This document shows, one piece after another, positions 5,614-59,012 of a stretch of DNA of 59,012 bases; within the stretch, counting starts at the first letter, position 1, and the number at the start of each line of letters is the position of its first letter. Below the pieces are notes generated by a model. The model was not told where the DNA came from. It saw only the letters and a program-made list of their open reading frames with translations, and searched no databases. Both the position numbers and the translations under genes were made by a program. Origin of the DNA: Candidatus Moraniibacteriota bacterium (GTDB lineage Bacteria; Patescibacteriota; Minisyncoccia; Moranbacterales; UBA1568); the NCBI GenBank assembly GCA_903893925.1, contig CAITOC010000012.1, positions 1-59,012 on the forward strand. Reading direction: 5' to 3'.

Positions 5614-7761
5614 TTATCGTCCGTTCAAAAGGGTCAACACGTATGTCTCGCCATCGGTAAAGAACGGGTCGCCGGAGAAGTTCTGACCGAGTACCGGATC
5701 GACGAAGCGAATCTTGTCCGACGAGGCGACGGTTCCCGCCGCGGAAAGATCTCCGAACAGCGTGTCGCGTTCAGTATCGATGTCCGGCGCGATCCGGTGC
5801 GTGACGAGCCATTTGATGCCCACGTCGAGACTCGCCGTCCCCACATAGACGGTGCTTCCATCCTCCGTCCGGATCGATGTCTTCCAAAACCGCGCATGAT
5901 GACGGGTCCGGACATTCCCATCGCCGGTCTGCTTCTGAAATCCGAAATCGTGCACGTGCGTATTCCAAAACGACGGTGTCATAGGGGCGCGCGGATAACT
6001 CGCCTTCGTGATCGATGCCTCCGCGAGCGTCGTCATATTGGCGATCGTCACCGGATCGGACAACTTCCATCCGGCAGACTCCATCGCGGCGACAAACAAA
6101 TCATCGTCATGTGCCACGATGATGAAACTCATCGGCTCCTGATGTGTCCCGGAAAACGTCTCGGAATAGTGCGGGAGGCCAAGTCGTCCGAAGGCTCCAA
6201 TGATATCATTTGAAACTTCCGTCTTCACCGTCCGGTCGACCGCCAGACGCGCCGGCTCATAGCGAAACCCCTGGAAGACATACCATGCCACAGGAATACA
6301 GAACGTCAGGGCGGTCATCGATCGGAGACGACGCATGGACCAAGGATGTGCAGTGGCCGTCACCTTGCGTTTCCGATGTTTCAACTCAACAAGGCTGACT
6401 CCGATGATGAGCCAGAGTGCCCCGAGCAGGTACCCACCCCAGACATCGCTCAAAAAGTGCACACCGAGATACAGTCGAGAAAGACCGACCACGGCGATCA
6501 CAGCAAGCGCCGAAAACAGTACGAGCGTCCGATACCGCTTCCGTCTCACGCTCCGTAAGAGGACATACGCCATAAAGCCGTAGAGTGCGACCGAGAGTGC
6601 CGCGTGTCCGCTTGGGAACGAGAACGATGGTTCGAGATAGTATGCGATTAACGGCCGTGGTCGAAGGATGATCCTCTTGCCGAGCGAAGCGAATAACTGG
6701 CTTCCGGCAAGGGTGACCAGAAATGGCAGTACAAAAGACCGGCGTTTCCACAAGGCGAGGACCGCCACAAACGCAATCGACAGGACGATAACGACATCTT
6801 GCCGCGCGAGGAGCGTGATCCACAAAAACGCACGAATGAATCCCGTATCCCGGAAAGCAAACATGAGATTGGCGACGCGCGCATCGACGAAGACGATAGG
6901 TTCGGCCGTGATGACGCCTTCGACGACGCCGGATAGGAGGAATATCAGCGCGACAGCCGCGACGGACAACAGCGTAAGCGGTAATCCGAAGAAATGTTTC
7001 CGATCGAAACGCCGTTTCGTGAATGCGACCGATTTCGGATATCGCTCGAAAAGCCGTTTCATGTCGGGATTATCCCCGATAGCGACGGCGATTGAACGGA
7101 GAAGAGACCGACACACCCTACCGAATGGACGAAGCCTTTTGACAATGAACCAGAGCACGACGAGCAGGAACACCGATACGAGGAGGAAGACCGACGCCCG
7201 AGTAAACCAGGTCTCGATCATTGTCGTAGCTCCTCCGAAAAAATAGCCCAAGGTCAAATGCGACCATGCCCACAGAAGGGAAGCGACCACATCCCACAAG
7301 AGGAATCGCGACCATCCCATATGAGACAGTCCTGCCACGAACGGGATGACCGGACGCAGAGGACCAACGAACCGTCCGAGGAAGATACTCTTCTCCCCGT
7401 GTGACCGGAAGAACGCCTTACCTTTTTCCTGATAGGACGGACGAAGAAACCGGTTTCCTTCCCGAAACAGGTTCTTGCCACGAAGACCGAGCTTATATCC
7501 GATGACGTCGCCAAGGATCGCGCCGATCGCGACGAACCACACCAGGGTCCTGAAATGAAACAATCCCTGCGACGCAAAGAACCCGAACAGGATGACCAGC
7601 ATCGTCCCCGGAAACATAAGCCCGACAAACGGCAAGGATTCCACAAATGAGAGACCGAATGCGATCCAATACCCGAAAACACCGACATGACCGATTGAAG
7701 GAAGGAATGAAGAGAAGAAATGCATACGATGCGTTCGTGATTGAAAAATCGGACATTTCAC
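5614..7761 (-). CDS. Triple-fusion membrane protein: DedA-like + PAP2 phosphatase + LssY-like C-terminal domain
   Basis: The N-terminal DedA-like TM region is followed by PAP2 motifs (KxxxxxxRP as LGKRIILRPRP, PSGH, SRLYLGVHFLSD). The C-terminal ~230 aa resemble the LssY_C family (RHHARFW...DIDTERD). GTG start, uncertain. Confidence 0.65.
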   Translation of the reverse strand: MKCPIFQSRTHRMHFFSSFLPSIGHVGVFGYWIAFGLSFVESLPFVGLMFPGTMLVILFGFFASQGLFHFRTLVWFVAIGAILGDVIGYKLGLRGKNLFREGNRFLRPSYQEKGKAFFRSHGEKSIFLGRFVGPLRPVIPFVAGLSHMGWSRFLLWDVVASLLWAWSHLTLGYFFGGATTMIETWFTRASVFLLVSVFLLVVLWFIVKRLRPFGRVCRSLLRSIAVAIGDNPDMKRLFERYPKSVAFTKRRFDRKHFFGLPLTLLSVAAVALIFLLSGVVEGVITAEPIVFVDARVANLMFAFRDTGFIRAFLWITLLARQDVVIVLSIAFVAVLALWKRRSFVLPFLVTLAGSQLFASLGKRIILRPRPLIAYYLEPSFSFPSGHAALSVALYGFMAYVLLRSVRRKRYRTLVLFSALAVIAVVGLSRLYLGVHFLSDVWGGYLLGALWLIIGVSLVELKHRKRKVTATAHPWSMRRLRSMTALTFCIPVAWYVFQGFRYEPARLAVDRTVKTEVSNDIIGAFGRLGLPHYSETFSGTHQEPMSFIIVAHDDDLFVAAMESAGWKLSDPVTIANMTTLAEASITKASYPRAPMTPSFWNTHVHDFGFQKQTGDGNVRTRHHARFWKTSIRTEDGSTVYVGTASLDVGIKWLVTHRIAPDIDTERDTLFGDLSAAGTVASSDKIRFVDPVLGQNFSGDPFFTDGETYVLTLLNGR

Positions 7762-7861: not shown

Positions 7862-9757
7862 TCATTTCCGAAACCGCTCTCCCAAAAGTCGCATCGAGTT
7901 TGCAAGCGGGAGGAAGTCGGTAAGGAAATTGTATGCCGCAGCACCTTCCGGTCCGATCAGTCGTCCGAAGACAAGCGCGAGTCCGATCACATTCACCGTC
8001 CCCCAGATGATGAAATCCTGACGCGCTATCTTCGCCACGTCGTGACCGATCCCGATCGCCTCGGGAATCTTGGAGAAGTCATCTTGCATGAGCGCCACGT
8101 CCGCCGCCTCGATAGCCGCATCCGATCCGATGACGCCCATCGCGATACCGACATCGGCAAGCGTGAGCGCCGCCGCATCGTTCACGCCGTCACCGACCAT
8201 CGCGACCTTGCCATGATCTCGGGCGATATACGCCTTCAGGTGCTCCAACTTGTCCTCAGGGAGAAGGTTCGCATGATAAACATTGATACCGACGGCGTGC
8301 GCCACGCTTTTTGCCACCTTCTCGTTGTCACCGGTCAGCATCACGATATCCCGGACACCGAGCTCCCGCAGCCTCGCGATCGACGCCTTCGCTTCGGGAC
8401 GAATCTCGTCTTGCAAAATAATCGCTCCGACGAGCCGTCCATCATACGAGACCGGCAAGACGCTTCCTATGCCGTCTTTGGCGACTGCGACGATCCGTTG
8501 CTGTTCGACATCGGAAATACTGACTCCCTCCGCCACGAGAAACGGGAGTTTGCCACAAACGATACGCTTCCCTTGAAAAGTCGCATACGTCCCCTTCCCG
8601 GATTGTTCTCCCACATCGGATATCCCGCCAGGAGCGATGTTCTGTTCCTTCGCATATCGCATGACCGCACGCGCCACCGGATGAGTGGAGACGGCACTCG
8701 AACCGGCGGCAAGCGCGATGATATCGTGCTCCGTCCGTCCGTCGAATACCGCTACCTCGACGACACGGAGCTTGCCACGGGTGAGTGTGCCGGTCTTGTC
8801 GACGATCACCGTCCGGACCTGCGTAAGTCCTTCAAGGAACGATCCGCCCTTCACGATGATTCCCTCCTTGGCGGCATTACCGATCGCCACGAGAAATGCC
8901 ATCGGGAGCGCGACCGCGATATCGTCGGCGCAGGTAACGAGAAGCACGGACAAGACGAGATTGAGGTCGCGCGTGAACGCATAGAGAAGAGCCGTTCCGA
9001 CAAACGAAACGGCGATATACCATCCGGCGAACCGATCCGCCACAGTCTGCACGCCAGCTTTCCGATCCTGCGATTCCTCGACGAGACGGATGACCTTCTC
9101 AAACGAAGTGTCCTTGCCGACCTTCTCGGCACGCACGACGAACGATCCGGACACCGCCAAAGTCGAACTCAACATCATATCGCCGACACGCTTGTCGACC
9201 GGGAGCGATTCCCCTGTCAAAGACGACTGGTCCACCTGTCCCTCACCCTCGATGACCACTCCGTCGATCGGGATCCGTTCCCCATCGCCGATGACGATCA
9301 GATCATCCTTTCGTACCGCCGAGACCGATTCCTCGACGACAAGATCGCCACGCTTGACCCGAACCGTCTCGGGCCGGAGCTTCATCAGACTTCGGATAGC
9401 ATTGCTCGCACGGTTCTCGGTATATGCGTCGAAGATGCGTGCCGAAGCAAGCATAAGCCCGATAAACGCTGCCGACGCCCATTCACGATTAAGAAGTGAC
9501 ACGACGAGCGCCACGCTTGCGAGTAAATCGACCGTGATCCGCTTCTCGCGCAGTGCTACGATCGCACTCCGAAGCACGGGCACCGTCGCGATGCCTGCGA
9601 GGACGCCAAGAACGAGGTCCCCGGTCGAAGAGGAGACGATGTGGAGATAGTGCGAAACGAGTGCGAGTGCGAGCACGGCAAAAAGCGGTTTGTCGAAACC
9701 GACGGACCGAACCCGTTTCAAAAAAGACCCTGTTTCCATGCCCTCAGTATAGTACAA
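7862..9757 (-). CDS. P-type ATPase, P1B-like architecture, atypical transmembrane metal motif
   Basis: TGES, DKTGTLT and GDGVNDAAAL are present. No N-terminal metal-binding domain is seen, and the position of the usual CPC motif reads TCADD. Confidence 0.8.
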   Translation of the reverse strand: MYYTEGMETGSFLKRVRSVGFDKPLFAVLALALVSHYLHIVSSSTGDLVLGVLAGIATVPVLRSAIVALREKRITVDLLASVALVVSLLNREWASAAFIGLMLASARIFDAYTENRASNAIRSLMKLRPETVRVKRGDLVVEESVSAVRKDDLIVIGDGERIPIDGVVIEGEGQVDQSSLTGESLPVDKRVGDMMLSSTLAVSGSFVVRAEKVGKDTSFEKVIRLVEESQDRKAGVQTVADRFAGWYIAVSFVGTALLYAFTRDLNLVLSVLLVTCADDIAVALPMAFLVAIGNAAKEGIIVKGGSFLEGLTQVRTVIVDKTGTLTRGKLRVVEVAVFDGRTEHDIIALAAGSSAVSTHPVARAVMRYAKEQNIAPGGISDVGEQSGKGTYATFQGKRIVCGKLPFLVAEGVSISDVEQQRIVAVAKDGIGSVLPVSYDGRLVGAIILQDEIRPEAKASIARLRELGVRDIVMLTGDNEKVAKSVAHAVGINVYHANLLPEDKLEHLKAYIARDHGKVAMVGDGVNDAAALTLADVGIAMGVIGSDAAIEAADVALMQDDFSKIPEAIGIGHDVAKIARQDFIIWGTVNVIGLALVFGRLIGPEGAAAYNFLTDFLPLANSMRLLGERFRK

Positions 9758-11989: not shown

Positions 11990-12081
11990 AACTTGATGTG
12001 ATATATTGCTACCGGAGGAGTTCGCCCCGCGAATGCCGGGGCGAACTCTTGAACGTAACGGAGGTTCAGGTAATTTAGTAT
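11990..12081 (+). repeat. Family-1 REP/MITE-like repeat, copy 1
   Basis: ~92 nt, near-identical to 14775..14868 and to the reverse complement of 47573..47666. The core hairpin is GAGTTCGCCCCG-N7-CGGGGCGAACTC (12018..12048). Confidence 0.85.
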
Positions 12082-14607: not shown

Positions 14608-14774
14608 GATGAGCCACCTCCCGTGGCGTACCTATTGATTGATGGAAATGAACTACGGGGTGAGCATAACAAAAATAGCATCCGCCCACAAGGTCCCTCC
14701 AAAACGGGGGAAACAGACAGTCGACCGTCTGTTTCTTGTATCAGCACGCCTTTACTGCCATATTATACCGAAAT

Positions 14775-14868
14775 AACTTGATGTGTTATTTATTGCTACC
14801 GGAGGAGTTCGCCCCGCGAATGCCGGGGCGAACTCCTGAACGTAACAGTGATTCAGTTAATTTGGTAT
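14775..14868 (+). repeat. Family-1 REP/MITE-like repeat, copy 2
   Basis: Carries a 13-bp stem GGAGTTCGCCCCG-N7-CGGGGCGAACTCC (14804..14836). The flanks aacttgatgtg...gctaccgg and ctgaacgtaacagtgattcag are shared with the other copies. Confidence 0.85.
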
Positions 14869-25736: not shown

Positions 25737-27143
25737 TTACTTCCCACGAAAAAACGAGTAGAACAGTACGAGTGCCGCAAGCGCCATCAGCACGAATGCG
25801 AGCCGGACAAAAAAATTCGATATCTTGCCGTTCTTATACTCGCCCATGACAGCGGTATTGTTGCCGACCTTGGCAATCACGAAGAGCAGCGGTACGGCGG
25901 CGATACCGTTGAACACAGCCGTGAAGACAAGCGCTTTGATCGGATCGAGTCCGATGAAGTTCATCATGAGGCCGACCACGGTCGCAAGGATGATGATACC
26001 ATAAAATCCCTTCGCCTTCCTAAACTTCCGATACAGGCCCTCTTTCCAGCCGAGTGCCTCACTGAGTGCGTACGAGGACGAACCGGCCAAGACCGGCACT
26101 GCCAGAAGGCCGAGTCCGAGTATGCCGACCGAGAAAATAAGTTTCGCCACGAGACCGGAATTCGGAAAGTTCTGGACCAACGGTTCGAGTGCCTGCGCGG
26201 CATCGGCGGCCGAATTGATTTCCGTGATGCCGGCGGCATGCAGGGTCGAAGCGCACGCGATCACGATGAACCAGGCCGTCAGACTGGCGAGCGTCATACC
26301 GACGAAATTGTCGAGTTGCAAATTGCGGAGGAACCTGCCGGTCGCCTTGGGCACCGTGCCGATCTGTGTCCGGTTGCGATGCATGATCTCTTCCTCGACC
26401 ACTTCCGACGTGTCCCAGAAGAACAGGTACGGCGAGATGGTCGTCCCGAGCATACCGACGAAAATGTACATCGTGTCGAAATCGATCTTTGGAGTGAGCG
26501 TGAACGTGTTGTGAAACACCTCCACCCAGTTCTGACCGACCACGAATGCCGTCACCGGATAGGCCAGAAGCGCCACGGCAAGCCATTTCAATATCTTCGC
26601 GTATGTCTTGTAGCTCACGAGCACTACCAAAAGTACGATGATGACGGCATAGAAGATCGCAAGGAGCGAGAACGGGAGATTGACGAACAACTGAGTCGTC
26701 GCTGCCATCGCACCGAGATCGGAACCGATATTGACCGTATTGGCGGCTACGACAAGCGCGACCGACATGAAAAGCAGCTTCTTGCTATAGTGTTCCTTGA
26801 TGACCGCAGCCAGTCCCTTGCCGGTGATCGCACCGATACGCGAACAGCTTTCCTGCACCGCCAGGAGGAATGGGTACATGAGCGGGAACGACCATAAGAG
26901 TCCGAGGCCATATCCGGCTCCGGCCTGCGAATAGGTCGCGATTCCCGACGGATCGTCGTCTGCCGCACCCGTCACCAGACCGGGACCCAGGATATGCAAA
27001 AATCGGCTGTACCGTTTCCGGTTCAGCATGTTCTTCTTGATATTGCGTGCCAGCCTTTCGGTTCTGGTCAGTTTCCGATGCGTTCCCGTCTTCACCGCCT
27101 GTTCGGGAAGATCCGATACTTCACTCATAGCGGTCTTTTTCAC
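25737..27143 (-). CDS. mntH: Nramp-family divalent metal transporter
   Basis: GPGLVTGAADDDPSGIATYSQAGAGYG matches the Nramp TM1 signature, and the protein has ~11 TM helices. Confidence 0.75.
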   Translation of the reverse strand: MKKTAMSEVSDLPEQAVKTGTHRKLTRTERLARNIKKNMLNRKRYSRFLHILGPGLVTGAADDDPSGIATYSQAGAGYGLGLLWSFPLMYPFLLAVQESCSRIGAITGKGLAAVIKEHYSKKLLFMSVALVVAANTVNIGSDLGAMAATTQLFVNLPFSLLAIFYAVIIVLLVVLVSYKTYAKILKWLAVALLAYPVTAFVVGQNWVEVFHNTFTLTPKIDFDTMYIFVGMLGTTISPYLFFWDTSEVVEEEIMHRNRTQIGTVPKATGRFLRNLQLDNFVGMTLASLTAWFIVIACASTLHAAGITEINSAADAAQALEPLVQNFPNSGLVAKLIFSVGILGLGLLAVPVLAGSSSYALSEALGWKEGLYRKFRKAKGFYGIIILATVVGLMMNFIGLDPIKALVFTAVFNGIAAVPLLFVIAKVGNNTAVMGEYKNGKISNFFVRLAFVLMALAALVLFYSFFRGK

Positions 27144-47541: not shown

Positions 47542-47572
47542 TCTCGATAGGATGGATCGTTCTCAATAAATC

Positions 47573-47666
47573 ATACCAAACGAACTGAATCACTGTTACG
47601 TTCAGGAGTTCGCCCCGGCATTCGCGGGGCGAACTCTTCTGGTAGCGATAGACAACACATCAAGTT
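47573..47666 (-). repeat. Family-1 REP/MITE-like repeat, copy 3 (inverted)
   Basis: Reverse complement aligns with copies 1 and 2 over ~94 nt. Hairpin at 47606..47636. Confidence 0.85.
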
Positions 47667-47829
47667 GTCTCGGTATGAGAAATGGAAAACGAGTACTGGA
47701 ATGAGTGATGAATCGAGTATGAATGAATTATTTATTTCAGATTTACGTATAACTGAGTATATCGTGGTGAGATTTGAGATAGATACTTAGCATACGCTCT
47801 CCCGAGCGCTAAAGAAGTTCGGCCATATC

Positions 47830-52057: not shown

Positions 52058-53569
52058 CTAGAACCACGGCTGTATCTCGGTCCAATTCAGATTGCAGGAA
52101 CGGGTTCCTAAAGCATCAAGAGTGACTCCGACCGTACAATCATGAACTTTTCCACATTGGTTTGTAACCTTCCACGCAGTCTCGCCGGAACAATGATTTG
52201 CATTACTGCAATCATATACGCACCATACATGACAAGAAGCATCACTTCCGCCATTCTGACCACGACATGTCCAGGTCCAATCGGGTGTTTGATAGGTAGT
52301 ATCGATAATATCGGCAGAAGCAGGCGTTCCCACGAGAATACCGTCGGTACAGAGTCCGTTTGGAACAGCAGGAGCGACCGGAGCTATCGTCGAGGGTTTA
52401 TATGTATTTGGTTTATTAGTAGCAGGGTTGTCGCTCGGAGTGGAGGCGGAGCCGCAAATACCGTTTGCCAGTCTCGGCGAGTTACAGGAACTATCCGACC
52501 CTCCGTTCAACCCGTAGCAGGTCCAATTCCATTTGAAGTTCCCCAAAGGCAAACTGGATGGAACTGAATTAGACGGAGTCCAGCCCGTCGCAGAAGTACA
52601 CAGGTTGCCACTCGGAGTGAATAAGGTCGCCGTCGACTGTGCGGATCCGCACTGTGCATCTATCTTCCTTGGAGCAGAACACGACGTTGCATACATTCCG
52701 TAATTCGTCGAGCATGACCAAGAAAATGGTCCGGTGGACGGAGCTGAGACGGATCCGGAATATGTCCCAACCGAGCAGAATCCCGAGGCTGGTGCTGTAT
52801 AGGTACTGACGCCATTCGCCGGACCGCAGACCGGAGGCGTCACTGATGCCGAACAAGAAACTGCGCTCCCGCCATTAACGCCGGAGCAGGTCCATGCGTA
52901 AGGACCGTACGCAGGGTCCGACACGCCGGACTTACTACCGACCGAACAAAGGCCGGCCGTAGGTGGCGTCAGGAAACTTCCTCCATTCGAAGGACCGCAG
53001 ACACCATTGCGCGCCCATTGGGCGCTGCAACCGGCATTGGATCCTCCAGGACTGCCATAGCAGGACCATGTCCACGGACCCGAAGCCCCGGGACCCGAAA
53101 CGGCAGAAGCGCTCCCACTGCTACACAGACCCGAAGAAGGAGCGTTATATGAGCTCCCTCCGTTCGCGGAGCCACAGGAACCACTCACTATTACCACGGT
53201 GATATTGATGCATGCTTGAGCAGTATATTCTCCACCAAAACCATCTCCCTGATGACAAGTAGCATAATATGTCGTAGAGCTCATGGGATAGAAGGTTCCA
53301 ACTGATCCGCTTACGGAAGAGGAATTTTCGCAACTGGCAGAAAGAGTCACTGGATCACCGGAGATGATCGTATCTGCACTCGAAGAATAGTTGAGACCAA
53401 CGGAAGGGATTTGACCCCATGAGACCGTAAGGCCATATCCCCAGGTTGGCGGGATAGTCGCCGATCCGGTATAACTGCTACAAGCGTCCGCCCAAACTAT
53501 CATCGGGAAAACAAACACGGACAGGCATGACAACCCAAACGCCACTGAAAAAAGCGCTCTTGTTTTCAT
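52058..53569 (-). CDS. Secreted Cys-rich protein with five tandem 4-Cys repeats
   Basis: Signal peptide MKTRALFSVAFGLSCLSVFVFPMIVWADA (alternative start 53644). The repeat pattern CG-x-(A/S)NG...P...LC..G...W.W.C.G.NGG....C occurs 5 times, followed by a terminal 6-Cys knot. Confidence 0.7.
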   Translation of the reverse strand: MKTRALFSVAFGLSCLSVFVFPMIVWADACSSYTGSATIPPTWGYGLTVSWGQIPSVGLNYSSSADTIISGDPVTLSASCENSSSVSGSVGTFYPMSSTTYYATCHQGDGFGGEYTAQACINITVVIVSGSCGSANGGSSYNAPSSGLCSSGSASAVSGPGASGPWTWSCYGSPGGSNAGCSAQWARNGVCGPSNGGSFLTPPTAGLCSVGSKSGVSDPAYGPYAWTCSGVNGGSAVSCSASVTPPVCGPANGVSTYTAPASGFCSVGTYSGSVSAPSTGPFSWSCSTNYGMYATSCSAPRKIDAQCGSAQSTATLFTPSGNLCTSATGWTPSNSVPSSLPLGNFKWNWTCYGLNGGSDSSCNSPRLANGICGSASTPSDNPATNKPNTYKPSTIAPVAPAVPNGLCTDGILVGTPASADIIDTTYQTPDWTWTCRGQNGGSDASCHVWCVYDCSNANHCSGETAWKVTNQCGKVHDCTVGVTLDALGTRSCNLNWTEIQPWF

Positions 53570-53734
53570 GCTGTTTTGCGAGACGACGTTCTTCTCGAAG
53601 GAGGCCAACCCTGACAAACGGACAGGCACCGATGTGTATTTCATGCCTCTTCACTTAAAGGGAGTGCGGGGAAAACGCACCCAACGCACCGTATTCAGTA
53701 TACTACGATACCATCCCGAAACAAAATGATTCCA

Positions 53735-54724
53735 TCACAAAAAGACATTTCGTATCACCTGAATGATGCTGTCGTTAAAGAGCATCGTCATCAGGAGACC
53801 GGCGACGATCCAGGGCGAGAACGGCATGTTCCTTTGCATGACGATCGAAGTAATCCCCTTTGACGTCAGGAATGCCTGAAGCAGGTCGACTTGTTCCTCA
53901 TCCAGACCATCCGCTTTTATGGAACCAAGCTCCTTCATGAACTCTTTCGGAAACGTTTCCGCCTCACGAAGTGTTATGAGCGGAAACTCCCCCGTCTGTA
54001 TTTCATCGGTATTTTTCGTATATGCTTCGTTATCGGCTATGTATTTCCGTATCACGAGCGAAAACGATACCCATACCAACATGCCGGAAAGGGCCGATCT
54101 CACGACATCGATCATCCCTTTCCCGTCAGACCCGACGATAAACAAGGGAACACATACGAACCCTGTGAGCAGGAGTATCCGCATACTGGCCTTCCCAAAA
54201 TTGGCCGATTTGAATGTCCGAATGATGCTCGCAACAGAAAAACGACCGGGGACAGACGGAAACATCAGGCCGAAATATCCCTTCACGGTGACCCCTCTTC
54301 GCAATTGACCTACCAGATAGGCAAGGGAAAACGCCGCCAGCATCACATAGGCACAAACAAAAACATTAACCAAAAACGTTATCGCCGGAAAGAACGGAAG
54401 ATAGTTTTTCCAGTAGTAATGCAGTGGCAGGAGAAATACGAACAAGGTAAATAATTTTGCATCGCCTGCCGGCCAGAAATTGATCGTCCAGAACAGGTAG
54501 CTTACACACAAAGCGATACCGGCATTCACCACGATCTGGCCGACATACGACATCGTCACGACGCCGATCGACAAACCGATCGCGTACAAGACGAGACCGA
54601 CGACAAGACCGCTCATGATGATGCTGTTCGGTATCCGCTTTCGAGAGATATCCTCGACGACGACTGCTACTCCGATACCGGCAATCAGGGCGAGGAGAAA
54701 GACATTGAATATAATCAGATTCAT
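53735..54724 (-). CDS. A24-family (prepilin/preflagellin peptidase-like) intramembrane aspartyl peptidase with extra soluble region
   Basis: First Asp motif VVEDISRKRIPN and second Asp motif WPAGDAKLF. A ~90-aa hydrophilic insert precedes the last TM helix. Confidence 0.6.
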   Translation of the reverse strand: MNLIIFNVFLLALIAGIGVAVVVEDISRKRIPNSIIMSGLVVGLVLYAIGLSIGVVTMSYVGQIVVNAGIALCVSYLFWTINFWPAGDAKLFTLFVFLLPLHYYWKNYLPFFPAITFLVNVFVCAYVMLAAFSLAYLVGQLRRGVTVKGYFGLMFPSVPGRFSVASIIRTFKSANFGKASMRILLLTGFVCVPLFIVGSDGKGMIDVVRSALSGMLVWVSFSLVIRKYIADNEAYTKNTDEIQTGEFPLITLREAETFPKEFMKELGSIKADGLDEEQVDLLQAFLTSKGITSIVMQRNMPFSPWIVAGLLMTMLFNDSIIQVIRNVFL

Positions 54725-55656
54725 TTCCGTATTTTTTTCACGATTTTATCCTTGTCTACGAATACCGGACTGAGTTCTGTAACGGAATAATACCGACCCC
54801 ACCCATAGATTCCTGCGCAGATATCCCGAAGTGAACATTCCTTACAACATGCCGCTTTCTCACTCATCCAGGTGTCCTGGATACTCTTTCCCTTCTCGTC
54901 CAAGAAATAGATGGTCCTTGCCTCTTCTTTGACAATCTTCCTGGTTTCCGTCGAGACATGTTCGAATCCGGAGAGATAACACAGTGGCACCCGCTCGACC
55001 CGGAATGTTTTTTCTTCCGACGTCAGATGTGTCAACGCCCGATGCAGTTCCAATTCGAAGTCATGCAGTCTCGGAATAACCTCCGGATTTTCGGAAGCGC
55101 GGTTCATAAAGGGGTCGAGGTTATTGAACACAAAATGTCGGATGAACGGATGCCGCGTCGTGAGCCACTTCACTGTCTCTGAGAGGTGATCGGCATTAAG
55201 CTTACTGATGGCGATATTCGCGTCGACCGTCATCGTTCCAAGTTTCTTCAAATTGTCGAGTGCTCCGATTATATTCCGAAGAGAATCAGGATTGTTCGAA
55301 AGCTTCGCCTGCACGTCATCCCGACATGAATAGATCGAGACATGAACATGCCTGAGTCCGGCATCTTTCAGGGATTCCGCATACCCAAAATCGGCCATCC
55401 TCTGACCGTTCGTGATAATCCGTGGCATCACGCCCTTCGCACACGCATACGTGATGAGACCGGTAAGGTCCTTATAGAGTGTCGGCTCTCCCCCGGTGAT
55501 GATCACGCCTTCCCCGCCCTCCTTCTTGATCTCGTCGATTTTGTGCTTCGCCATTGTCAAGGAGAGCCTCCGCTCTGTCGGAGGATTGGAACAGATGATG
55601 CACCGCTGATTGCATCGTCTCGTCACCTGTATATATCCCAGTCGCGCCATACGCAT
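54721..55656 (-). CDS. Radical SAM protein D (short form)
   Basis: CNQRCIIC (CX3CX2C), GGEPT and C-terminal CCKECSLRDIC-AG. Its stop overlaps the peptidase start by 4 nt. Confidence 0.8.
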   Translation of the reverse strand: MRMARLGYIQVTRRCNQRCIICSNPPTERRLSLTMAKHKIDEIKKEGGEGVIITGGEPTLYKDLTGLITYACAKGVMPRIITNGQRMADFGYAESLKDAGLRHVHVSIYSCRDDVQAKLSNNPDSLRNIIGALDNLKKLGTMTVDANIAISKLNADHLSETVKWLTTRHPFIRHFVFNNLDPFMNRASENPEVIPRLHDFELELHRALTHLTSEEKTFRVERVPLCYLSGFEHVSTETRKIVKEEARTIYFLDEKGKSIQDTWMSEKAACCKECSLRDICAGIYGWGRYYSVTELSPVFVDKDKIVKKIRK

Positions 55657-55661
55657 CTGTA

Positions 55662-56855
55662 TTAAACCTTTCGTCCAGCAAAATTATGCGGTTCGATCCG
55701 TTTCTTGGGCTTTATCTTGGGTTTCAATATTGAAAATCCATTTTTCCTCACATCCCCAATCCATGCCCCGTCACAGGTTTCGAAATACCGACATTCTCGA
55801 CACCGGAGACTCTTCACGAAATACCGGTTTCCGATGAAGAAATGCGTGAATGATTCGAGCGTAAAATCCTTATCCATCCTGAAAACGGGAGTGGGTTTCC
55901 GTCCCTTCATCACTGATCCGCAACAAGGCGGATCCGCTCTTCCCGGTAAGGACTTCTTTGCCAACAGGAGATCGAGGTCGGCACAAAAGCCACTCATAAA
56001 ACAGTATCGGCACCGCTCCCCTTTGCACGACATCGGGATTCCGCGCTCCACAAGTCGCGCCAATCCGAAGTGCATTCCCTTCACCTCGTCATTTATCTTC
56101 ACGGGATTCTGAATGAGATCTTCAAACCCTTCTAGGTACTGAGCCGGCAACCGGTTCGTCCAGATAAACAAGTTCTTGTTTTTCGACAACCCGAATGCGT
56201 CACGTAAATAGTTGTGGGTCTTCTCTGGATCAAAGAACAGCTCACTCCGGTTCTTCCATGCATCCCCAAACGGGATTGGATACAGGAGATCAAATTCGCT
56301 CACCCCGAGTCGAATATAGAATTGGATTGTCTCCTTGAGCGTCTGATAGTTTATCTTGTTGATGACGATGTCTACGTTCACGATGAAACCCTGTTTTTTG
56401 GCGTTCAGCAATCCGGCAAGCGCCTGATGGTAACTCCCCTTGATACCGGACATGCTCTCGAAGTCTTCCTCGATATGGCTGTGGAGCGAGAGCGTCACCT
56501 CGTCGAGTCCGGCCTTCTTCAGATCCTTCGCGAACTTCTCATAGGCGAGCATCCGTCCGTTGGTGATGATCTGCACATGTTCATATCCGAGAGATTTCGC
56601 CTTGGCGATGATCTCACAAAGCTGTGGATGAACGGTCGGGTCTCCCCCCGAAAGAACCGCACGTTTTGCTTCGCCTGAGAGTCCTTTCTTCAGATCGGCC
56701 ACGATCATTTCCACCGGGAATATCGAGCCGTTCTGGTTCTCGCGGTCGAGACAAAACAGACACCGGTTATTGCACGCGCGGGTGATCCGCACCCAGTGTT
56801 TTTTCTGTTCGGCGACGGCATCTTTCACTTCGTTCCTGCCGGTTCCTTTTGCCAT
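55662..56855 (-). CDS. Radical SAM protein C (long form, two extra Cys clusters)
   Basis: CNNRCLFC, SGGDPT, CKGERCRYCFMSGFC and CRECRYFETCDGAW. Start set at MAKGTG (56855) to avoid overlap with the upstream paralogue. Confidence 0.8.
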   Translation of the reverse strand: MAKGTGRNEVKDAVAEQKKHWVRITRACNNRCLFCLDRENQNGSIFPVEMIVADLKKGLSGEAKRAVLSGGDPTVHPQLCEIIAKAKSLGYEHVQIITNGRMLAYEKFAKDLKKAGLDEVTLSLHSHIEEDFESMSGIKGSYHQALAGLLNAKKQGFIVNVDIVINKINYQTLKETIQFYIRLGVSEFDLLYPIPFGDAWKNRSELFFDPEKTHNYLRDAFGLSKNKNLFIWTNRLPAQYLEGFEDLIQNPVKINDEVKGMHFGLARLVERGIPMSCKGERCRYCFMSGFCADLDLLLAKKSLPGRADPPCCGSVMKGRKPTPVFRMDKDFTLESFTHFFIGNRYFVKSLRCRECRYFETCDGAWIGDVRKNGFSILKPKIKPKKRIEPHNFAGRKV

Positions 56856-56874
56856 AGTTCTGACGGTAACACGC

Positions 56875-58014
56875 TTATTCCTTCTCAACAACCGGCCGCA
56901 GTATCTTAAATCCACCGGCCCGGATATCCTCGACCCAGGCACCGTCGCACCGGTCAAAATGAACACATCTTTTGCATCGCAGACTCTTCACGAAATGCCG
57001 GTGCTGAATATAGAAGTCGGTGAATGATTCAAGCGTAAACTGTTTATCCTTCCGGAATGTTTTTCCTTTTTTTACGCCCATCACCTTGATACACTTTGGA
57101 CTCTCCCTGCTTTTCAGATCCCCCTCCTTCATGACCCTTTCGAGGTCACGACAATACCCCTGAAAATAACAGAGCGCGCAACGCGGTCCCCTACACGCAA
57201 TCCGTTCGGCTCCATCGACATACGACGACAATTCCGGATACCTTCCCAGGACATTGTCTTCGAATTTTCCAGGTTCACCGATATACTGTTCAAAGTGCTC
57301 CAGATAGTATTCCGGGATCTTATTGGTTTCGATACGCACATCTTTCGGTATCGGCAACGAAAACACTTTCTGAAAATATGTATATGCCGTTTCCGGAGGA
57401 TCCATCGGATATCCGTCCGTCTTCCACGACGAACCGAAGGGCTGGACCTGAAAAAGATGGACATCCTTCATCCCGAGCGAGATGAAAAATCGAACGGTTT
57501 CACTCAGCTTTTTGTAATTCACCCTGTTGACCACGATATTTATGAAGCACCGTATCCCATGCTTCCGGACATTCAACAAACCCCTGAGTGCCTGTACATA
57601 GCTCCCCTTCGCTCCCGAAATCACTTCGAAGTCCGCCTTGATATGGCTATGCAAAGAAAGGACGATGTCGTCGAGACCTGCCTCCTTGAGATCGAGTACG
57701 AGCTTCTCGTTTGCAAGCATCCGACCGTTACTGATGACCCTGACATGCTTGTATCCGTACCGTTTGGCTTTCCTGATGATTTCGGGAAGGTCGGGATGGA
57801 GAGTCGGCTCCCCACCCGTAATAATAAGCATCTCGGCTCCGGATGCTGAATCTCGTTTGAGTCGTCTGACGTATTCGAGGATTTCTTCAGTCGGAATCAT
57901 CTCGTCTTTCTTTCGGTCACGACCGCTGTAACAAAAGAAGCATTTGTTGTTACACAGACGCGTGACACAGACGATATATCGGGATGTCCCGTCTTTTCCG
58001 GTCGATGCCCGCAT
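56875..58014 (-). CDS. Radical SAM protein B (long form, two extra Cys clusters)
   Basis: CNNKCFFC, GGEPT, CRGPRCALCYFQGYC and CKRCVHFDRCDGAW. Clear paralogue of protein C. Confidence 0.8.
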   Translation of the reverse strand: MRASTGKDGTSRYIVCVTRLCNNKCFFCYSGRDRKKDEMIPTEEILEYVRRLKRDSASGAEMLIITGGEPTLHPDLPEIIRKAKRYGYKHVRVISNGRMLANEKLVLDLKEAGLDDIVLSLHSHIKADFEVISGAKGSYVQALRGLLNVRKHGIRCFINIVVNRVNYKKLSETVRFFISLGMKDVHLFQVQPFGSSWKTDGYPMDPPETAYTYFQKVFSLPIPKDVRIETNKIPEYYLEHFEQYIGEPGKFEDNVLGRYPELSSYVDGAERIACRGPRCALCYFQGYCRDLERVMKEGDLKSRESPKCIKVMGVKKGKTFRKDKQFTLESFTDFYIQHRHFVKSLRCKRCVHFDRCDGAWVEDIRAGGFKILRPVVEKE

Positions 58015-58015
58015 A

Positions 58016-58933
58016 TTATTTTGGTGTATTCACGGGTTTGAATTCGTCCCAACCAAACGCATCCGGATATTCCTTCCACGGACCCTCACAAACGGCATCG
58101 TACCGGCACTTCACGCACGCTAGCCCCTTCGTCTTATCCTTCGTGACGCGCATTTTCTTGTAGTCCTCGATGATGCTTTTCTGATCGAAAATCCGTATAT
58201 CAGGCATCACCGTTTCGGAAATGCTCTCCTCATATCCCGAAAGCAGACAAAACGGCACCCCTTCGGTCATAATCCTCGTATCGAGTACCCGTCCGATATC
58301 GATAGCCCTTTTCAGGTATGGTGCGACCATCTCCATTCTCGGCACCACCGAATCAAAGTTGTTCTTGGCCGCGCCCAAGGGATGCACGAACGCAAACTGC
58401 ATCTGATCGACCCGCAGTCCGATCAACACCTTCGCGATGTCCGGCAGATGCCGATAGTTCGATTTTGTGATCACGGTATTCATGATGACCCGCTGGCCCA
58501 TTTTCTTGAGCGTCCTGATCCCGACGATAAGCTGACGGAAGCTCTTCGCCCCGGTAAGATAGTTATGCAGTTCCGCCGTATGCCCATGAAGCGCCAAGGC
58601 GAATTCGTTGGCTCCGGCCGCGATCATATCCTTGCAGAACTGCTCATACACGAACATCCGGCCGTTGGACTGTATCTGGATCGTCTTGAATCCGGCCTTC
58701 TTGGCCTCGGAAACTAGCTCGATTAAGTCCTTCCGGATGGTCGGCTCCCCGCCGGTGAACACGATCGTATCACATCCTTTCTTCGCCTTTTGGATGATCT
58801 CTTTGAGTTCCGCCGTGCTCTTATTCCCAAATTTCTTCTTTTCCGGTCCCTGCACACAGAACAAGCAGCTGTTGTTACAGAGGAAACCCGTCTTGATATC
58901 GGCTTTTTTCATATACATGCGAGACACGCTCAT
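58016..58933 (-). CDS. Radical SAM protein A (short form)
   Basis: CNNSCLFC, GGEPT and C-terminal CVKCRYDAVCEGPW. Start is uncertain (58933 or 58912). Confidence 0.8.
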   Translation of the reverse strand: MSVSRMYMKKADIKTGFLCNNSCLFCVQGPEKKKFGNKSTAELKEIIQKAKKGCDTIVFTGGEPTIRKDLIELVSEAKKAGFKTIQIQSNGRMFVYEQFCKDMIAAGANEFALALHGHTAELHNYLTGAKSFRQLIVGIRTLKKMGQRVIMNTVITKSNYRHLPDIAKVLIGLRVDQMQFAFVHPLGAAKNNFDSVVPRMEMVAPYLKRAIDIGRVLDTRIMTEGVPFCLLSGYEESISETVMPDIRIFDQKSIIEDYKKMRVTKDKTKGLACVKCRYDAVCEGPWKEYPDAFGWDEFKPVNTPK

Positions 58934-59012
58934 TAATCATTTTCCCCTTCTCTGCCATATTGACATCTTTTCCGCCCCTTTGTCACAGGAATCTCGGAAG
59001 GATATCATACAA

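Follow-up and report, generated by a model that had tools for sequence, protein, structure and literature searches.

The DNA analyzed here is a 59,012-nt stretch of a Candidatus Moraniibacteriota genome (contig CAITOC010000012.1; hereafter the window), and the region under study, at positions 52058 to 58933, is a minus-strand array encoding four radical S-adenosylmethionine (rSAM) paralogues, here named A, B, C and D, an A24-type intramembrane peptidase and a secreted protein with Cys repeats. This region is probably the 3' part of a ~22-kb peptide maturation cluster, an expanded and divergent form of the His-Xaa-Ser (HXS) type, from an organism resembling Moranbacteria (Patescibacteria). The genes present, the families to which they belong and their conserved order are matters of direct observation. 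The canonical system of this type, hxsD-hxsB-hxsC-hxsA (TIGR03976-03979), was characterised by Li et al. (Nat Commun 2026; PMC13128918) and blocks phage DNA entry, an activity shown for the E. coli system only (PMC13128918). A previous examination of the window without database searches, the sequence-only reading, had been unable to match the gene combination to a described pathway. It does belong to a described family, one delimited by bioinformatics, with bona fide HxsB and HxsD proteins and a precursor resembling HxsA3 and HxsA4.

The six open reading frames (ORFs) of the array in the window are the following:

58016-58933, minus strand, rSAM paralogue A, 305 aa, HxsC-family, with 3 rSAM Cys and 4 C-terminal Cys

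56875-58014, minus strand, rSAM paralogue B, 379 aa, C-type HxsC-family, with two C-terminal CX2CX5C motifs

55662-56855, minus strand, rSAM paralogue C, 397 aa counted from its ATG, C-type HxsC-family, with 3 + 8 Cys

54721-55656, minus strand, rSAM paralogue D, 311 aa, HxsC-family, with 3 + 4 Cys

53735-54724, minus strand, A24-type (GxGD) aspartyl peptidase, polytopic, 329 aa (PF01478)

52058-53644, minus strand, secreted Cys-repeat protein, 528 aa, with five 4-Cys repeats and a signal-peptide-like N-terminus

The genes A to D are separated by 1, 19 and 5 nt, D and the peptidase gene overlap by 4 nt, and 90 nt lie between the peptidase and the Cys-repeat protein. The coordinates, spacings and overlap given in the sequence-only reading were all confirmed, and so were the rSAM and C-terminal Cys motifs that it had described in A to D and the five 4-Cys repeats of the secreted protein. 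The window ends 79 nt from the start of A, whose true start is likely M8 (MKKADIK), at about position 58912; an alternative GTG start for C is present at 56966. When the six frames of the window were examined, no ORF with His-Xaa-Ser repeats was identified, in agreement with the previous statement that no precursor is visible there. Scanning the region or the window for promoters and terminators, Rfam families and tRNAs gave nothing exceeding background, and no tRNA or Rfam RNA was found across the 59 kb.

The precursor suspected beyond the edge was found in near-identical contigs. Contigs extending past position 59012 were located by an exact-sequence look-up of protein A followed by further look-ups within the same population, and the upstream sequence was recovered via cluster member P0143; a metagenome scan for the upstream contig returned one distant locus only (L091). 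Contigs 99.7-99.9% identical to the window end run on upstream, on the same strand, into the rest of the cluster. Contig L094 matches the window end with 99.89% identity, its last 88 nt included, and L010 is 99.85% identical to the window over 10.9 kb. The complete cluster covers ~22 kb and about 19 genes on a single strand, nine of which encode rSAM enzymes, with the precursor in the middle and the HxsC-like genes at the 3' end. In L094 the order is hxsD (197 aa), an hxsD-like gene (71 aa), hxsB (486 aa), a PapB-like rSAM gene (385 aa; described as rSAM/SPASM), the 83-aa precursor ORF, a Cys-rich membrane protein (304 aa), a HemN-like rSAM (456 aa), a MiaB-like rSAM (367 aa), a second PapB-like rSAM (371 aa), two proteins of 260 and 316 aa, an asparagine synthase (AsnS), and then A, B, C, D, the peptidase and the Cys-repeat protein. 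The upstream genes that bear most directly on the assignment are located as follows:

L094 7747-8340, hxsD, 54.5 bits to TIGR03976 against a cut-off of 50, with PF27806:HxsD precomputed for the gene

L094 8536-9996, hxsB, 481.6 bits to TIGR03978 (cut-off 370), with the whole model covered

L095 9441-9683, L094 11257-11508 and L001 919-1179, precursor gene, encoding 80, 83 and 86 aa, respectively

L094 16279-17061 and 17058-18008, genes of the 260-aa and 316-aa proteins (p260 and p316), no family match

The HxsB of this cluster is 34% identical, over its full length, to the annotated HxsB of Aeromonas, and the 71-aa HxsD-like protein passes the HxsD_rel model (NF038315; 52.2 bits against 41). 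The precursor ORF is placed ~9 kb upstream of A and encodes, in L094, the peptide MRMGKTSKKLPLIRKNLKTFLLSEEGKMTKKDIVKMTAAVVAVASILGVAAKPNDSLAVGYHVSHGSHGSHGSHGSHSSGGWC. It starts with a conserved leader of basic and acidic residues, KKNLKTFLLSEEGKMTKK, continues with a hydrophobic segment and finishes with HVS-(HGS)n-HSS-GGWC, where n is 3 to 5. The three peptide lengths listed above correspond to 5, 6 and 7 HxS units in near-identical strains, the remainder of the peptide being identical.

The four rSAM enzymes of the window resemble HxsC. All of them carry a CX3CX2C motif (CNNSCLFC in A, CNNKCFFC in B, CNNRCLFC in C and CNQRCIIC in D) and a C-terminal CX2CX5C-x-G motif, with a second CX2CX5C copy in B and C; A, B and D contain GGEPT and C contains GGDPT. 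They match PF04055 with E-values of 6e-23 (A), 3e-28 (B), 1.5e-24 (C) and 8e-24 (D). Pairwise identity is 46% between B and C, 31-33% between A and either of these and 27-30% for D, and on these sequence relationships the four are true paralogues. The best NCBIfam family is HxsC4 (NF038332, cut-off 500) for A, B and C, with 177, 102 and 101.5 bits (63.8 for D), and HxsC (TIGR03977, cut-off 267.9) for D, with 93.4 bits (114, 86.5 and 96.4 for A, B and C); none reaches either cut-off. The alignment of D to HxsC spans positions 29 to 290 of the 292 in the model. Since these are the best families of A to D, and since no further protein of the cluster resembles HxsC, the four are its HxsC-family members, yet they stand outside the curated HxsC and HxsC4 equivalogs.

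Conservation was assessed in a set of 81 species-level loci in which all ORFs were clustered de novo into orthogroups, HxsA-like peptides were called by a leader hidden Markov model (HMM) plus a repeat regular expression, and the peptidase was called by HMM. In the A orthogroup (65 sequences), C19/23/26 and C229/273/276/282 are 100% conserved. The C-type orthogroup has eight C-terminal Cys, 277/282/285/291/311/352/355/361, also 100% conserved (a 3+8 pattern), and the D orthogroup conserves C226/271/274/280 in the same 3+4 pattern as A. The three Cys of the rSAM motif are conserved at 97-100% in the A, C and D orthogroups. These patterns could accommodate a single auxiliary Fe-S site in A and D and, with eight Cys, two such sites in B and C; the Cys count of C is SPASM-like. 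B itself is a recent, lineage-specific duplicate of the C type, a separate B copy being seen in L010 and L011 only. The AlphaFold2 model of A (mean predicted local distance difference test, pLDDT, 86.6) has the twitch enzymes BlsE and SkfB as top folds in the Protein Data Bank (PDB), followed by GDGT-MAS, SuiB, viperin and MoaA. No match of A to D to the Pfam SPASM domain (PF13186) was obtained at E<=0.01, so that of the two Pfam families for which the sequence-only reading had proposed HMM searches, PF04055 was recovered in all four and PF13186 in none. The fold and the Cys pattern nonetheless make the label "SPASM/twitch-like" reasonable, and PF04055, the conserved Cys and the fold of A support the initial description of four rSAM enzymes with putative auxiliary Cys motifs of the twitch/SPASM type. 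PADLOC v2 reported only a generic similarity to the viperin (pVip) rSAM core.

The peptidase matches PF01478 with 27.3 bits, slightly over the gathering score of 26.5, and the same family is matched by 16 of 17 homologues. Residues D25, N33, W84 and A86-G87-D88-A89-K90, which include both Asp motifs, are invariant in the 17. The protein extends C-terminally by ~200 aa, and its profile had no match among PDB sequences. Members of the family are encoded in 33 of the 81 loci, with few exceptions at the 3' end of the HxsC-like array and in its orientation; in 16 of the 33, distributed across several phyla, HxsA, HxsB or HxsD is encoded within 10 kb. The link between an A24-type peptidase with both Asp motifs and the rSAM genes, noticed previously in this single array, is therefore conserved across phyla. 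We propose that the protein acts as leader or anchor peptidase of the HxS-repeat peptide.

The A family is large and conserved to an unusual degree: 1403 matches at E<=1e-10, in at least 590 species, with 50-88% identity. It was found in Patescibacteria (Moranbacteria, Parcubacteria, Saccharibacteria and Azambacteria), Omnitrophota, Myxococcota, Schekmanbacteria, Margulisiibacteriota, Verrucomicrobia and Nanoarchaeota. Orthogroup counts in the 81 loci were 61 for A, 46 for the C type (directly after A) and 33 for D, besides the 33 of the peptidase, and 27 for HxsA-like peptides, 23 for HxsB, 22 for PapB-like proteins and 17 for HxsD. The cluster orthogroups are mostly on one strand and in fixed order, and A followed by the C-type gene, D and the A24 peptidase is an arrangement shared by Patescibacteria, Omnitrophota and Myxococcota and, in part, by other lineages. 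HxsC-like paralogues number from three to seven or more per locus, and in 30 of 79 loci HxsA, HxsB or HxsD is encoded at a distance of no more than 10 kb. The HxsA-like peptides of the 27 loci share the leader (P)KIKKxLKxFLxSEEGKIxKK, a hydrophobic segment and an HGSHGS... core ending in W or WC. Of the gene neighbourhood drawn in the sequence-only reading, the rSAM/peptidase order was thus recovered across phyla, while the Cys-repeat protein, which had been listed there as part of the combination, is restricted to close relatives, its sequence homologues adjoining the cluster in L010 and L011 only. Two variants were observed in passing. In a Moraniibacteriota relative (L016 10817-12097) a YcaO-domain protein (TIGR00702, 119.9 bits against 75.65) is encoded between A and the C-type gene, which suggests that some variants may have extra backbone chemistry. 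In Myxococcota core loci (L077 8892-10007; also L046 and L029) the peptidase is followed by a ~370-aa protein with a CX3CX2C motif (CAVNCRHC); from its sequence we would guess that it is KamA/lysine-aminomutase-like.

Several results weigh against placing the region in an HXS-type cluster with a dedicated peptidase, or do not fit this scheme. A to D score far under the HxsC and HxsC4 cut-offs, their identity to canonical HxsC is just 20-23%, and the ~100-aa N-terminal extension of the latter is outside the alignment. The precursor itself missed the cut-offs of both models that it resembles, with 36.4 bits (E 3e-9) against 65 for HxsA3 (NF038309) and 28.5 bits (E 2e-6) against 55 for HxsA4 (NF038313); precursors of relatives do pass the HxsA4 cut-off (93.5 bits in L038 and 57.9 in L027). 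The leader of the precursor does not show the classical prepilin cleavage context, that is, a Gly directly before the hydrophobic stretch and a Glu at +5. For the peptidase model (pLDDT 75) Foldseek gave no PDB match at E<=0.001. The 260-aa and 316-aa proteins had no Pfam, NCBIfam or PDB-sequence match. Finally, in at least 13 Myxococcota loci an HxsC4-like gene, A, C, D and the peptidase are present and, within 10 kb of them, an HxS peptide, HxsB and HxsD are all absent; a different set of Myxococcota loci lacks the peptidase and encodes HxsD, HxsB, HxsA4, A and D. The Myxococcota HxsC4-like paralogue reaches 302 bits to HxsC4, under the cut-off of 500.

Since core loci without HxsA, HxsB or HxsD within 10 kb exist in Myxococcota, the core could serve another substrate. 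A to D and the peptidase would then form an autonomous module acting on a different protein directed to the membrane, for example a pilin-like or other small protein encoded elsewhere, with the HXS genes adjacent by chance in some lineages. Loci where A stands alone (e.g. L051, L057 and L063), a PilB-like ATPase upstream of hxsD and, in the organism studied here, the 236-nt gap and the inserted AsnS that separate A from the upstream half of the cluster are all consistent with such a module. However, the best families of A to D are HxsC4 and HxsC, and nearly half of the peptidase-bearing loci, as counted above, also have HxsA, HxsB or HxsD, in several phyla. The upstream half directly abuts A in close relatives, where p316 (L013) or p260 (L016) is followed by A with 3-nt gaps. 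No alternative conserved small ORF was found either, the search in the Myxococcota core loci having given alternate-frame artefacts only. We consider an autonomous module unlikely. Much less probable still is that the secreted 4-Cys-repeat protein is the substrate, carrying for instance thioether cross-links, with the peptidase handling its export signal. Its gene is on the same strand and only 90 nt downstream, and other, non-homologous Cys-rich secreted proteins are found at the same position after the peptidase in several close relatives (L012, L013, L014, L020 and L070). Against this role, the family itself is adjacent in L010 and L011 only and thus not conserved with the core, no Cys-rich secreted protein is present at that position in Omnitrophota and Myxococcota loci, the repeat is generic, with ~2000 clusters of large surface proteins, and an even number of Cys per repeat together with a Sec-type signal fits ordinary disulfides. 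The substrate role of this protein was rejected as the main reading. The least credible alternative, to which we give hardly any weight, assigns A to D to a cofactor or lipid pathway (MoaA, AhbC/D, NirJ, PqqE or Tes-like) and not to peptide maturation. There are weak partial matches of the rSAM core to the MoaA, AhbD, NirJ, PqqE and Tes models, and GDGT-MAS, MoaA and viperin are among the fold matches of A. These pathways were nevertheless rejected: the scores were 40-100 bits against cut-offs of 231-650, only the rSAM core was covered, the partner genes are absent and the neighbourhood consists of genes typical of ribosomally synthesized and post-translationally modified peptides (RiPPs). The sequence-only reading had favored peptide maturases over cofactor enzymes, and had named assignment to cofactor pathways, together with the lack of co-occurrence with the peptidase or the Cys-repeat protein, as the outcome that would speak against it; with those models far below cut-off and the peptidase co-occurring across phyla, its view of A to D is supported.

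We therefore return to the reading of the region as the 3' part of an HXS-type cluster and consider how such a cluster could operate. The leader would probably be recognised by HxsB/HxsD, and the HxsC-like enzymes, alongside HxsB/HxsD and other rSAM enzymes, would modify the His/Ser repeat core in the cytoplasm. The HemN-like, MiaB-like and PapB-like enzymes may carry out further tailoring, for which the C-terminal Cys of the precursor is an obvious candidate as the site of a PapB-type thioether. The hydrophobic segment could then insert the modified peptide into the membrane, where the A24-type GxGD protease would cut the leader or anchor, so that the modified repeat would be released or displayed at the cell surface. 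If canonical HXS is taken as a guide, an antiphage action of the product at the envelope is conceivable. Given that the HGS repeats are neutral and that a peptidoglycan-binding domain is lacking, another role, e.g. metal binding, is equally possible.

More tentatively, and with some doubt, we suggest that A, the C-type enzyme, D and the GxGD protease could together mature His-rich repeat peptides anchored in the membrane and then release them, as one machine shared across phyla, with an A24 protease as dedicated RiPP leader/anchor peptidase and a Patescibacteria product that acts other than by electrostatic DNA binding. To our knowledge, a role as RiPP leader or anchor peptidase has not been described for the A24 family. 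If this suggestion is true, a product with HGS repeats and GGWC could be a metal-binding peptide, a cell-surface or host-contact peptide, or the effector of another mode of phage exclusion. The cluster would represent a large, divergent HXS branch beyond Pseudomonadota, in Patescibacteria, Omnitrophota, Myxococcota and others. It offers a candidate processing protease for the cleavage step of canonical HxsA, and the branch would provide natural experiments on what HxsC-type enzymes do to His/Ser repeats. The main interest resides in three features: a GxGD protease dedicated to the system, HxsC-like enzymes in several copies and a broad occurrence in lineages other than Pseudomonadota. An investment of ~22 kb and nine rSAM enzymes in a single 83-aa peptide by a reduced genome suggests an important product for the organism.

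Concerning the remaining genes of the cluster and its surroundings, the AsnS passes the asn_synth_AEB equivalog (307.8 against 267.1) and occupies this position only in this lineage. A function as lasso-type cyclase was discarded, as it is an ordinary AsnB-type equivalog, confined to the lineage and placed beside a dispersed hairpin repeat; from this context it looks like an insertion that split one operon. The repeat is intergenic and built on a GC-rich hairpin, GAGTTCGCCCCGGCATTCGCGGGGCGAACTC, with copies at window positions 47568-47760, 14765-14868 and 11990-12069 and at L093 5073-5265, 7588-7634 and 18201-18288. Copies adjoin the inserted AsnS and the 5' side of hxsD, there is no Rfam match, and the element could be similar to repetitive extragenic palindromes (REP) or miniature inverted-repeat transposable elements (MITE), or be a terminator. 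One copy is overlapped by a called 54-aa gene (L093 18048-18212), which is possibly spurious. In six loci, some of them from Omnitrophota, a member of the family of the 260-aa protein is encoded beside PapB-like genes; for this protein and the 316-aa one, the pattern of strands would allow no more than a guess at an ABBA-prenyltransferase-like fold. Between the PilB-like ATPase and hxsD, some strains encode a surface protein of 1659 aa with GDSL lipase, Fn3_assoc and CHB_HEX_C domains (L094 2199-7178, L095 421-5400), which is absent from others, as seen when L094 and L095 are compared with L093 and L096; this strain variation lies at the 5' border of the cluster.

At the other end, the true start of the Cys-repeat protein is likely M26 (MKTRALF...VWADA), to judge from its sequence. 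Its five repeats begin at C157, C216, C273, C332 and C397, with the consensus CGxxxGGxxxxxPxxGLCxxGxxSxVSxxxxGPxxWxCxGxxGGSxxxCSA, and the protein had no Pfam, NCBIfam or PDB match. The repeat was detected in 1969 representative clusters, whose proteins reach 3155 aa and show up to 13 matched stretches each, few of them with other known domains; this distribution points to a widespread, generic extracellular module, for which Pfam has no model. Because the protein is conserved in close relatives only and the repeat is widespread, it is probably a clade-specific neighbour and not a core component, and it is probably disulfide-bonded and extracellular. The other genes of the window (e.g. at 25737-27143, 7862-9757 and 5614-7761) look like housekeeping and transport genes; among them are an Nramp metal transporter, a P-type ATPase, a fused VTT/PAP2/LssY_C membrane protein, pyruvate kinase, a DEAD-box helicase, GyrB and L25.

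Comparison with known systems was centered on canonical HXS, represented by L097, an Aeromonas plasmid locus with annotated hxsD-B-C-A. In both, HxsD and HxsB exceed the curated cut-offs, and the precursor combines tandem His-Xaa-Ser repeats with an N-terminal export or anchor segment of hydrophobic character. Both also have HxsC-type rSAM enzymes, which carry C-terminal Cys motifs besides the rSAM cluster, and maturation involves processing of the precursor at its N-terminus, a step that would also apply to the cluster described here. The maturation scheme outlined above fits the canonical system, in which HxsA is modified, with +8 Da on SHRSS (PMC13128918), and the model for its action is based on the basic HRS repeats and the peptidoglycan-binding domain of HxsA (PMC13128918). 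Canonical HxsA is ~190-214 aa long and bears those basic HRS repeats, whereas the precursor of the present cluster has 80-86 aa, neutral C-terminal HGS repeats and no peptidoglycan-binding domain. Nine rSAM genes are present here and two there; the four divergent HxsC-like paralogues are ~100 aa shorter than canonical HxsC, and a dedicated A24-type protease is added. While 99.7% of canonical systems were reported in Pseudomonadota with an almost invariant four-gene layout (PMC13128918), our cluster has ~19 genes, departs from the hxsD-hxsB-hxsC-hxsA architecture and belongs to a group from Patescibacteria, Omnitrophota and Myxococcota.

With respect to the typical A24 peptidases (MEROPS; PilD, FlaK), the peptidase of this cluster is alike in its PF01478 match, polytopic structure and invariant motifs (D)DIxxKKIxN and AGDAKL. 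It differs in the extra C-terminal region of ~200 aa, in being tied genetically to rSAM maturases and not to pilus genes, and in its putative substrate, which has a conserved SEEG motif, lacks the canonical G|(F/M)xxxE class III signal and is without the G|F..E context. Of the twitch/SPASM maturases (SkfB, SuiB, PapB, anSME) and BlsE, those nearest to A in predicted fold are BlsE and SkfB, although A to D are only 15-22% identical to these enzymes, none with an N-terminal domain of the RiPP recognition element (RRE) type. Further described relatives are the NCBIfam variants HxsA3, HxsA4, HxsC4 and HxsD_rel: the leader and repeats of the precursor align to HxsA3 and HxsA4, and A, B, C and the Myxococcota paralogue match HxsC4 best, all below cut-off, with D matching HxsC best. 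No curated model for the A, C-type and D orthogroups or for the associated peptidase was found, nor was a publication on the expanded HXS form or its variants in searches combining rSAM, prepilin peptidase and precursor or directed to rSAM RiPPs of Patescibacteria. The cluster is of the HXS kind, an expanded and divergent variant of it and not a categorically new system.

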